From Chloroflexota bacterium (GTDB lineage Bacteria > Chloroflexota > UBA11872): a stretch of 64,000 nucleotides of DNA. Position numbers and translations under genes: made by a program. Below the pieces are notes generated by a model that searched no databases, had not been told where the DNA came from, and was given only the letters and a program-made list of their open reading frames with translations. Location: contig OZ244789.1 of assembly GCA_965219705.1 (NCBI GenBank), positions 2,221,627-2,285,626 of the forward strand, given 5' to 3'. This document shows positions 26,024 through 27,649 of the stretch, one piece after another. The stretch's first letter is position 1. Every line of letters starts with the position of its first letter.

Positions 26024-27649
26024 ATGCCATCACTCTATCAGCAGCTTCAGCATCCGATGACCAAAGAAGTAAACGCACGCGATCGAGAACGACTTACTGC
26101 TATGTTTTCTGACTTGCAGTCTAGCACCGTAGAGCATTTTCTCTGCCTGCGACGCTATTTGGATTCAATACCCGAGAAGTTCTTCGATAAGCAGGCCTAC
26201 AAGATATATCTCGACTGGCTACAAAGACGGGCGGCAACCAAGCCAACGGAACTTGCTCGATACTTCGCCGATTCTAGCGCTGACATCGATCGTTCCTTCA
26301 TATTCCTTCGAGAGATCAACGCACGGGGGTGGCATAACGGCGCATTGGCCGATCAGGGCGACGGAAGCGATTACGATCAGCTCCAGGGCATCGACCGGCA
26401 GATTCATCCAAGTTATCTCCGACTAGTAGAGGCCGTCTTTACTCCGCTCACCAGGCCTATTGCATACTTTTCGCGAATCGATCGAAACAAAGGCACGGGC
26501 GGACTCGACACTTGGCAGATCGTCGAAGAGCTGAGAAGGCTTTCGCTACAGAGTCTCGCGGACCCATATGGACACACCATACGCAACGGTATCGGTCACG
26601 GCGGAATCACTTTCTCGCAGACTGAGATAATATATCAAGACAAGAGGGGCAATCGAGAAACGCACAATACTAGAGCGGTTGTCCGGTTGTTCGATGATCT
26701 CCTGGACACCTGCAATGCACTTGCCGCAGCGCTCAAAGTGTTCTTTCTAATCTCTCGGAACCAAGGATACGCATCACCACGTGAGCTTTTGATTGAGGAG
26801 TTGCAAGAGGAGACGAAATCCCCGTGGTGGACTATTGATGGATGCATAGAGTCACAGGTGTTGGGTAAGATTCAGCTGATTGTATACGCTCGGCCAAACT
26901 CGCGGCGCGAGGAAGTACTTCAATACTCGGCCTGTCAAACCGGATTACTTTCGGAATTCTTCGCTCCGGGATACAATAGATACTTGATTTTCTTTCAGTC
27001 GCATAAGAAAAAGCTTCAAGGATTGACTATTTTTGATGGCGACAAACTTCGTGCACTGCGCGCTGCCGGCGCCGAGTACCCGGCAAGCTACAAAGACGTA
27101 CTGGAATGGCATCTCATATTCAGTACGCGTTGGTCGTTGCCGAAGGTATTCGGAAAGGTCGACACCTATATCAGAGCACTTAAGGTTGCGGCACCAATGG
27201 CACTACAACAATTGAAGGATGCATTAGGCAGCGCAGACATTACGTGCAGGAATTCTTCGGTGCATCGCAATTCTTGGGGTTGTGTATTGCGTGCTGATAT
27301 TGTGATTAGTGGTCTCGATGATCGTGCTGCGATGAATCTGGTTCGCAAGAATCGGGGGCGAATTGTAAGATTGGCAAAGCGACATGCACGTCGCGAGAAT
27401 CGCTTGGCGTTGGCCGCGTATTTGCCGATCGGCTTCGCTCAGGTCAATGTGTTCAGACGCGACTATCGAGCCCGGCGCTTATCGAGTTTTGGTCTTGGTG
27501 ATGACTTAGTGTGCACCGTGAGGCGTCAACGGATACGTCGGATCAAGGCCCCAGATATTCTAAGATCGACGGTTGAAGTCATGGGCACATGGCGTATAGC
27601 TTGGAATGAGGCTTGGTTGAAAGCGATCGACGGGAATGAAAGTGCTTGA
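26024..27649 (+). CDS. hypothetical protein, 541 aa, low-GC (foreign) composition, no recognisable motifs
   Basis: Long clean ORF with markedly lower GC (about 48-50%) and different codon usage from surrounding genes. Arg-rich C-terminal 100 aa. Located immediately downstream of the split methyltransferase. Confidence 0.6.
   Translation: MPSLYQQLQHPMTKEVNARDRERLTAMFSDLQSSTVEHFLCLRRYLDSIPEKFFDKQAYKIYLDWLQRRAATKPTELARYFADSSADIDRSFIFLREINARGWHNGALADQGDGSDYDQLQGIDRQIHPSYLRLVEAVFTPLTRPIAYFSRIDRNKGTGGLDTWQIVEELRRLSLQSLADPYGHTIRNGIGHGGITFSQTEIIYQDKRGNRETHNTRAVVRLFDDLLDTCNALAAALKVFFLISRNQGYASPRELLIEELQEETKSPWWTIDGCIESQVLGKIQLIVYARPNSRREEVLQYSACQTGLLSEFFAPGYNRYLIFFQSHKKKLQGLTIFDGDKLRALRAAGAEYPASYKDVLEWHLIFSTRWSLPKVFGKVDTYIRALKVAAPMALQQLKDALGSADITCRNSSVHRNSWGCVLRADIVISGLDDRAAMNLVRKNRGRIVRLAKRHARRENRLALAAYLPIGFAQVNVFRRDYRARRLSSFGLGDDLVCTVRRQRIRRIKAPDILRSTVEVMGTWRIAWNEAWLKAIDGNESA

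Follow-up and report, generated by a model that had tools for sequence, protein, structure and literature searches.

A candidate stand-alone HEPN ribonuclease gene in a variable cargo slot beside a DNA methyltransferase gene of a Chloroflexota bacterium

The stretch of DNA considered here (the window) comprises 64,000 nucleotides from a Chloroflexota bacterium of the UBA11872 lineage (GenBank assembly GCA_965219705.1, contig OZ244789.1, positions 2,221,627 to 2,285,626 of the forward strand). Near its middle, the gene for a DNA methyltransferase (MTase) is followed closely by an open reading frame (ORF) for a protein of 541 amino acids (aa), designated ORF541, which in turn runs up against a convergent host gene. 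An initial description of the locus, made from the sequence alone (the first-pass annotation), proposed that ORF541 and a "split", MmeI-like MTase form the two components of a novel restriction or defence module. The analysis presented here leads to a different view of the gene. ORF541 is not the dedicated partner of the MTase, and it is probably a stand-alone, trigger-activated HEPN ribonuclease (RNase) effector that travels as autonomous island cargo.

The ORF541 protein and its family

ORF541 is a single uninterrupted reading frame with an ATG start (Table 1), and the first-pass description of a clean, long ORF of foreign composition was correct. Its GC content is 0.506 and its GC content at third codon positions (GC3) is 0.528, as against a GC3 of 0.86-0.91 in the flanking host genes. 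The tight linkage on one strand that was described also holds, with 47 bp between the MTase stop codon and the ORF541 start, and the 3' end of ORF541 lies only 3 bp short of the stop codon of the convergent host gene (AP_endonuc_2). No sigma-70-like promoter was seen in the 47-bp spacer upstream of ORF541. A non-coding RNA or antitoxin gene in the flanks of ORF541 was considered for the window and set aside, because 47 bp upstream and 3 bp downstream leave no space for one; Rfam and tandem-repeat searches were not run. The IS110 transposase and the AAC(3)-type acetyltransferase that had been reported in the neighbourhood are indeed present upstream.

The full-length AlphaFold2 (AF2) model of ORF541 (predicted local distance difference test score, pLDDT, 79.9; predicted template modelling score, pTM, 0.64) consists of an N-terminal helical part, a beta-hairpin insert and two C-terminal alpha/beta modules, with low confidence at residues 363-389 and 483-489. 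Residues ~50-250 are predicted to form an all-alpha, four-helix, up-and-down bundle of the kind that characterizes HEPN domains. Within this bundle, the sequence R187-N-G-I-G-H192 falls on a short helix (residues 184-191) of the model and has the Rx4-6H form, with a polar residue (N, D or H) after the Arg, by which HEPN RNases are recognized. The first-pass annotation had recognized no catalytic motif in the protein. This statement was accurate with respect to P-loops and DEAD boxes, neither of which occurs in ORF541, and it overlooked what is a canonical HEPN Rx4H motif.

Conservation across the family is centred on this motif. R187, N188 and H192 are among the ten invariant columns of a 38-sequence alignment that extends down to 24% identity, the same three residues are invariant in the family alignments A1, A3 and A5, and all 39 of the diverse members compared, with identities as low as 23%, retain RNxxxH. 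Apart from R-N-x-x-x-H, no polar cluster of ORF541 is strictly conserved. The motif consensus is RNGI[AG]HG[GNK], with no Tyr two residues past the His. In the beta-hairpin that directly follows the catalytic helix, Y204 and D206 are invariant in alignment A1, and in A5 their conservation is 90% or higher. The C-terminal modules give weak, generic alpha/beta matches (DUF487, C-terminal domains of cation-diffusion facilitators, and DHH-associated domains), and their conserved residues are mainly structural, apart from Arg319, Arg409, Arg482 and Arg484. These conserved Arg residues would fit the binding of RNA or phosphate. The Arg-rich C-terminus described at first pass, where nucleic-acid binding had been suggested, is real; residues 441-541 include 20 Arg and carry a net charge of +15, and the quoted strings are present.

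The closest structural matches of the HEPN region are HepT toxins, and the C-terminal domain of kanamycin nucleotidyltransferase and the HEPN domain of sacsin also appear among the matches. No HepT-like ORF suitable for a reference profile was found in the 1.2 Mb of DNA searched, and the HEPN assignment therefore rests on fold and motif. The predicted fold and the invariant motif nevertheless argue strongly that ORF541 carries an HEPN RNase domain.

The family to which ORF541 belongs is sizeable and has no name. At least 200 full-length homologues with 43-57% identity are found in a database of 5.8 billion proteins; the named ones are few, all of them "hypothetical", and a Pfam domain is absent throughout. 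When the family profile was run against 1.84 billion cluster representatives, it recovered 526 clusters, and the best 150 of these are either end-to-end matches of ~510-590 aa or fragments, with zero domain fusions. Searches of Pfam, NCBIfam, PADLOC and PHROGs with ORF541 and 38 diverse members gave nothing significant, and the best match of ORF541 itself in PADLOC v2.0.0 (PDC-M04A, E = 0.032, 11.6 bits) is likewise not significant. On these comparisons ORF541 is best described as representing a new and unnamed family of the HEPN superfamily, new at the sequence level and with a distinct predicted architecture.

Loci of ORF541 homologues were collected by a pattern-based scan of one genome per species in 185,579 species genomes, and the resulting 60 loci are a lower bound. 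They come from Chloroflexota, Planctomycetota, Gemmatimonadota, Acidobacteriota, Nitrospirota, Bacteroidota, several proteobacterial groups, Verrucomicrobiota, Spirochaetota, one candidate-phyla-radiation bacterium and two methanogens. Intact full-length ORFs of the family were recovered in 53 cases. The ratio of non-synonymous to synonymous substitution rates (dN/dS, by the Nei-Gojobori method) is 0.08-0.27 in all pairs with unsaturated dS (0.2-1.2), and the family is thus under purifying selection. The pair formed by the window and L061, a collinear locus described below, was left out of this comparison, because its dN/dS of 0.41 on 14 codon differences is uninformative. The first-pass annotation had pointed out that a lack of purifying selection in relatives would mark the ORF as a degraded remnant; the low dN/dS values and the 53 intact ORFs show that it is not one.

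Three of the homologues, from L052 (Polaribacter), L047 (Saprospiraceae) and L044 (a bin labelled "uncultured archaeon"), are 90-92% identical as proteins, with dS of 0.37-0.52; L052 and L044 share 92%. Such likeness indicates that the gene was transferred recently between very distant taxa or, in the case of L044, that a 2-kb contig was mis-binned. The patchy distribution, the foreign GC3 and the closely similar copies in distant taxa together suggest that the family moves horizontally.

Table 1. Coordinates of ORF541 and associated features in the window, followed by the surroundings of homologues at other loci (aa, amino acids; R-M, restriction-modification)
Feature	Positions	Strand	Remarks
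ORF541	26024..27649	+	541 aa, ATG start; member of unnamed conserved family
HEPN domain (predicted)	26171..26773	+	residues ~50-250; helical bundle with catalytic motif
Rx4H HEPN motif	26582..26599	+	R187-N-G-I-G-H192; invariant in family
Beta-hairpin insert	26603..26668	+	residues 194-215; consensus GGITYxxxEIxYxDKKGN; directly after catalytic helix
Alpha/beta module 1	26780..27064	+	residues ~253-347; contains PWW267-269, W269 invariant
Alpha/beta module 2, Arg-rich	27143..27634	+	residues ~374-537; R482 invariant, R484 nearly so; WRIAWN motif
Gamma-class N6-adenine DNA MTase gene	23066..25977	+	969 aa if intact; motif I FACGTGALL, motif IV NPPF; context gene
Island block, MTase + ORF541	22976..27650	.	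~99-100% identical to L061; flanks 90-94%; divergent patch 23976-24375
Variable cargo slot	25944..27661	.	from MTase 3' end to convergent AP_endonuc_2 gene; occupant here ORF541
Homologue at L052			Type IIG R-M enzyme 145 bp upstream, same strand
Homologue at L035			Type I HsdM 42 bp downstream, same strand
Homologue at L049			N6_N4 methyltransferase at 175 bp, same strand
Homologue at L023			HerA neighbour, E = 4e-154
Homologue at L038			PDC-S39 neighbour
Homologue at L007			LmuB-like ATPase neighbour
Homologue at L057			SspA/DndA-BrxP-like protein neighbour
Homologue at L066-L069			inside MobC/relaxase remnant; BrnT toxin gene ~6 kb upstream
Homologue at L070			in island with RadC, DUF6094 methyltransferase, helicases and PLD-SNF2 protein

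Linkage between ORF541 and the neighbouring methyltransferase

The apparent splitting of the MTase gene results from a deletion of one nucleotide. Relative to L061, which is collinear with the window, one G is missing at ~24231; the MTase of L061 is a single ORF of 969 aa, and ORF541 follows it 47 bp later with a protein that is 99% identical. In the window, the second MTase frame extends upstream of its GTG codon (...HGCDVMPSAIH) and runs straight across the junction. The split MTase is thus one gene with a frameshift, and the missing G may be either a real mutation or an assembly error. The comparison with MmeI is not established either. The matches of the intact 969-aa protein in PADLOC are weak and generic for MTases (MTase_II, 4e-10; mad2, 1e-9), and there is no match to REase_MTase_IIG in PADLOC or to any PDB sequence. 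Near the N-terminus, the string PDILIT...VIEAEY resembles a nuclease motif, judging by the residues, but lacks the Lys.

The 970-aa MTase, repaired in silico, was compared by tblastn with the 60 homologue loci, including up to 10 kb of flank on each side, and a relative was found at only one of them (L002), where it is 25% identical, on the opposite strand and 1.4 kb away. No other gene takes its place. Clustering by blastp of ORFs of at least 70 aa within 8 kb revealed no neighbour, other than ORF541 itself, that is conserved across the 60 loci; phmmer comparisons of ORFs of at least 45 aa within 1.5 kb gave only recurrences that stem from the synteny of three related Chloroflexota genomes; and no family predominated when the 105 nearest neighbours were scanned with Pfam and PADLOC. 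In the reciprocal comparison, ORF541 was found beside relatives of the MTase in none of 8 loci by called genes and none of 7 by tblastn. The first-pass annotation had suggested asking whether the adjacency recurs in other genomes, and had accepted that homologues scattered without MTase linkage would tell against its proposal. The homologues are scattered in just this way (59 of 60 loci lack the MTase, and no neighbour family is conserved), and the proposed partnership therefore fails by the standard that was set for it.

Related genomes provide a second line of evidence. L073 represents the same chromosomal site as the window, with the AAC(3)-like gene, the MTase gene and the convergent genes for AP_endonuc_2 and a thiamine pyrophosphate (TPP) enzyme, and with flanks that are 89-90% identical. 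In place of ORF541 it contains 0.8 kb of unrelated, low-GC DNA, with no ORF541 and no remnant of it. L074 shares the left side of the site and carries 2.3 kb of other DNA, including a fragment of an NsnB/AriA-like ATPase gene; a similar fragment lies downstream of the MTase gene in L064. At L062, the flanks match the window at 53.6-64 kb with 84-91% identity, and the MTase gene is therefore at a different chromosomal site. It lies there beside a Phd/ParE pair and is followed by an unrelated ORF of 127 aa, the homology having stopped before ORF541. In L062, L073 and L074 alike, homology to the window ends at exactly position 25943, which is 34 nucleotides before the MTase stop codon, and in L073 and L074 it restarts at 27662. 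These fixed breakpoints define a variable cargo slot, of which ORF541 is one alternative occupant. A slot with filled, differently filled and ORF541-free alleles and base-pair-identical breakpoints amounts to a clean natural experiment, and its alleles should be useful for studying the exchange of defence cargo next to restriction-modification (R-M) genes.

Some details of the slot may be recorded here. Its left edge lies 34 nucleotides inside the 3' end of the MTase gene, and the last ~11 MTase codons consequently vary with the cargo. The corresponding intervals in the relatives are L073:6865-7705, L074:6868-9214 and L062:8877-9484. The L073 filler has a GC content of 50% and contains a Thr/Pro-rich repeat (ACACCTACACCTATACCTACA...). 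The MTase unit of L062 (L062:5886-9484, the MTase gene and the 127-aa ORF) lies next to a ParE/Phd toxin-antitoxin pair that is orthologous to the pair at 58501-59102 (- strand) of the window. This second integration site of the MTase unit has the same left end as the first, corresponding to window positions ~22953-22976.

What remains of the linkage is physical. In the lineage of the window, the MTase gene and ORF541 form one recently shared mosaic island, which is visible as the block of near-identity to L061 (Table 1). In a sliding-window profile, GC3 is 0.84-0.90 in the 5' part of the MTase gene, 0.50-0.77 in its 3' part and 0.51-0.60 in ORF541, and the foreign segment appears to take in the 3' half of the MTase gene plus ORF541. 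Linkage of this kind is expected of island neighbours and does not imply functional dependence. In addition, ORF541 is intact beside a frameshifted MTase gene, which is a mild argument against dependence. The best explanation is that the MTase is an independent module of R-M type that shares the island with ORF541 by chance.

ORF541 as an autonomous effector, and the alternatives

With no conserved neighbour in 60 loci and no fusions in the best 150 of the 526 clusters, ORF541 must be regarded as an autonomous gene. Its mode of action can be sketched by analogy with HepT, Csm6/Csx1, Cas13, PrrC and ApeA. As in known HEPN proteins, two copies of ORF541 would dimerize via the HEPN bundle, and the paired Rx4H motifs would create a single composite RNase site that works without metal. 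The enzyme would presumably be autoinhibited in uninfected cells and become activated by a trigger, either phage infection or the loss of a cellular factor. Once active, it would cut cellular and/or phage RNA (tRNA, rRNA or mRNA), leading to translation arrest and an aborted infection. RNA binding and/or the sensing of the trigger and autoinhibition might be contributed by the hairpin insert together with the two alpha/beta modules, and if these functions were indeed built into the protein, no antitoxin or partner gene would be needed. With respect to the defence reading of the first-pass annotation, an effector role is plausible in view of the HEPN core and the variable slot, and it is the partnership with the MTase that has to be given up. 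The chances that the function is one of defence are about even.

Comparison with known systems shows both the likeness and the distance. Among known proteins, those closest in structure are HepT toxins, which belong to type VII HEPN-MNT toxin-antitoxin systems (PDB 7AE2/7AE8, 5YEP and 8XDJ). HepT is a minimal domain of ~130-140 aa, whereas ORF541 has 541 aa, with a beta-hairpin insert and two extra domains, and the two have no similarity at the sequence level. The MNT antitoxin that adjoins HepT AMPylates the Tyr of RX4HXY; ORF541, in contrast, has a Gly at the second position after the His (RNGIGHGG), and neither an MNT gene, which is a defining feature of HepT systems, nor any other neighbour is conserved among the 60 loci. 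The functionally closest known system is ApeA, a solitary HEPN anti-phage RNase that has extra domains of no known homology and acts without a partner (bioRxiv 10.64898/2026.01.26.701840). The HEPN domain of ApeA is closest to HepT and carries insertions, the enzyme is activated via a ligand pocket remote from the catalytic site, and its oligomeric state has been determined, as have its ligand and tRNA target (bioRxiv 10.64898/2026.01.26.701840). Activation through a remote pocket provides a working model for ORF541. The order of domains is different, however: the HEPN domain of ApeA is C-terminal and follows helical N-terminal and Mid domains, whereas that predicted for ORF541 is N-terminal and is followed by alpha/beta modules. 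No member of the ORF541 family matches Pfam HEPN_Apea or any PADLOC model.

Other HEPN proteins also differ from ORF541. In Csm6, the sensor is N-terminal, so that the domain order of ORF541 is reversed relative to the CRISPR-ancillary RNases Csm6/Csx1; ORF541 has no CARF or SAVED match, and there are no cas genes among its neighbours. The lactococcal-type abortive-infection (Abi) proteins, namely AbiD/F (Abi_2), AbiJ, AbiU2 and AbiV, constitute single-gene or small HEPN systems on mobile elements or islands. ORF541 differs from them in size and accessory domains, and it has no significant Pfam match to them (HEPN_AbiU2, E = 0.03, in one member).

The surroundings of the homologues fit cargo of chromosomal islands. 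Defence-type neighbours occur in a minority of independent lineages, with a different gene each time (Table 1), and serine recombinase and transposase genes are neighbours at L002 and L003. The resulting picture is one of chromosomal island cargo with a tendency, assessed semi-quantitatively, towards defence neighbourhoods. One setting suggests a history of insertion. In L066-L069 (positions 6524-9379; four contigs from two metagenome samples), the homologue P0027 lies between a NikA/MobC-like gene and a MobC fragment of 61 aa, with a relaxase fragment next in line. The arrangement suggests that P0027 was inserted into the mobilization module of a decayed integrative element.

Several results weigh against the stand-alone HEPN effector. 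ORF541 has no HEPN match in Pfam, and in a scan at E ≤ 1 only one of 38 family members matched HEPN_AbiU2, at a subthreshold E of 0.03. The family profile gave only chance matches against PDB sequences, and a Foldseek search of PDB with the full-length model, a check that had been recommended at first pass, returned no match at E ≤ 0.001. The C-terminal modules, to which sensing is tentatively ascribed, have no confident fold assignment. PADLOC v2 includes no model for the ORF541 family. Most of the nearest neighbours of the homologues are ordinary genes (many of them metabolic) or unannotated, and the enrichment in defence genes is semi-quantitative. Finally, mobility is deduced from composition and context, because searches of 72,556 plasmids, of 50,697 phage genomes and of the viral contigs of IMG/VR yielded no homologue of ORF541.

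The first alternative to consider is that ORF541 is a selfish gene, in which case an HEPN RNase would favour its own carrier, either as a toxin for addiction or island maintenance or as a factor in competition between bacteria or between elements. The predicted fold is indeed nearest to HepT, a toxin of toxin-antitoxin systems, one homologue lies in a MobC/relaxase remnant with a BrnT gene ~6 kb upstream, relatives of the MTase are found among PIN/Phd, ParE/Phd and AbiEii modules, and both the patchy distribution and the foreign composition would be expected of such an element. No antitoxin-like neighbour is conserved, however, even in the sensitive searches described above, and the 47-bp and 3-bp spacers of the window are too short to hold one. 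Neither the 72,556 plasmids nor the phage collections contain the family, and a protein of 541 aa with two extra domains resembles a sensor-effector rather than a minimal toxin. A selfish role is accordingly considered unlikely.

The second alternative preserves a connection with restriction. PrrC and RloC are HEPN RNases that are found beside R-M genes and serve as a back-up when R-M is disabled. Both carry an N-terminal ABC-ATPase, and PrrC, an HEPN anticodon nuclease, regularly forms part of a Type Ic locus, the precedent being EcoprrI. By analogy, ORF541 could be silenced by contact with an adjacent MTase or R-M protein of any type and freed by a phage anti-restriction factor. In several independent lineages a same-strand MTase gene is directly adjacent to the homologue, as in the window and L061 (47 bp) and, at the distances listed in Table 1, in L035, L049 and L052; at L002 an MTase gene is the second neighbour, on the opposite strand. 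The lack of a sigma-70-like promoter in the 47-bp spacer of the window can be read in the same sense. However, such adjacency is the exception rather than the rule: the nearest neighbours at the 60 loci include three confirmed DNA MTases, four match the mad2 model, and hsdM is adjacent only at L035. A specific protein-protein contact is unlikely in view of the partners, which fall into four unrelated classes. Moreover, the MTase gene and ORF541 are separated in the close relatives L073 and L062, and in the window an intact ORF541 is apparently tolerated beside a frameshifted MTase gene. ORF541 also lacks the ABC-ATPase sensor domain of PrrC and RloC, having no P-loop and no ATPase match in Pfam. 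A guard of this type is an improbable explanation for the family.

A third alternative would retain the fold and dispense with the activity. Some HEPN-fold domains are non-catalytic, examples being those of sacsin and, at its C-terminus, kanamycin nucleotidyltransferase, and the helical bundle of ORF541 might similarly bind a nucleotide or other ligand, play a regulatory or scaffolding role, or belong to a housekeeping RNA-processing factor of restricted distribution. The presence of both of these domains among the structural matches, the absence of any family match at the sequence level and the many metabolic genes among the neighbours are all compatible with such a role. Non-catalytic HEPN domains typically lose the Rx4H motif, however, and in the ORF541 family the R, N and H persist without exception at identities as low as 23%, although the sequence around them diverges. 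A family that was found at 60 loci in 185,579 species genomes, even with this pattern-based count as a lower bound, is also too rare and patchy for housekeeping. A non-RNase function is quite improbable.

The obligate two-component module of the first-pass annotation, in which the MTase and ORF541 would act jointly as a new restriction or defence system, has in its favour the adjacency on one strand, with a 47-bp spacer, in both the window and L061, the single ~99%-identical block that contains both genes and the low GC3 they share (in the 3' half of the MTase gene), and it is hardly credible when the MTase is missing from 59 of 60 homologue loci, ORF541 from every examined locus of an MTase relative and from the empty-site allele L073, when the L062 MTase gene sits at another chromosomal site with no ORF541, and when the "split" is a frameshift.

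The stand-alone, trigger-activated effector thus accounts best for the data as a whole. A more specific version would have ORF541 define a single-gene anti-phage system, with sensing and autoinhibition residing in the previously undescribed pair of alpha/beta modules and the hairpin, that is distributed by horizontal transfer as hotspot cargo across many bacterial phyla and methanogens, nearly always in uncultured lineages beyond the reach of defence catalogues built on model organisms; this version is tentative, and the odds are somewhat against it. If the stand-alone effector model is right, ORF541 would contribute a further architecture to a group of single HEPN effectors that includes ApeA, Tha and AbiF, as well as unassigned sensor domains whose trigger could reveal a further way in which cells detect infection, and a compact RNase from environmental lineages that are mostly missing from defence catalogues. 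HEPN RNases in defence islands are an established theme, so that no long-standing question is opened and a specialist would not be surprised.

The methyltransferase family and other features of the window

The family of the MTase is much larger than that of ORF541, with more than 5,700 database matches. Its members are single polypeptides of 960-988 aa, many of them with a weak Pfam Eco57I match, and among the 120 matches listed the identity is 65-79%. Up to three paralogues occur on one 3.4-Mb contig (the contigs of P0282/P0288/P0296 and of P0278/P0301), and at L075:4001-10287 two full-length copies stand in tandem and adjoin two HATPase_c_3 genes. Multi-copy MTases of such near-constant length are unusual.

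The deletion at ~24231 lies inside the 400-bp divergent patch of the island block, which is 86-93% identical to L061, and it is not in a homopolymer run. The patch coincides with the switch in GC3 from a host-like ~0.85 to ~0.5-0.77. It looks like a recombination junction within the MTase gene, perhaps one at which the target-recognition half of the MTase was swapped.

The IS110-family element upstream occupies positions 20217-21659 of the window, with its transposase ORF at 20459-21439 on the - strand. The insertion is specific to the window genome, since L073 is collinear at 18620-20216 and again from 21660 onward; the site measures 232 bp in L073 and 1,444 bp in the window. Just outside the island on the other side is an SbcD/SbcC-like nuclease-ATPase pair, made up of a Metallophos ORF (30722-31969) and an AAA_27/AAA_23 ORF (31966-34962). 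The segment from 30510 to 33226, which covers the SbcD-like gene and the start of the SbcC-like gene, is 83% identical to L061, as against 90-96% on both sides of it. Farther along, at 45003-46976 on the - strand, a stretch of lower GC content contains a gene for a 657-aa protein that consists mostly of leucine-rich repeats (LRR_1, E = 1e-41); this gene adjoins genes for a sugar ABC transporter and an alpha-L-rhamnosidase.

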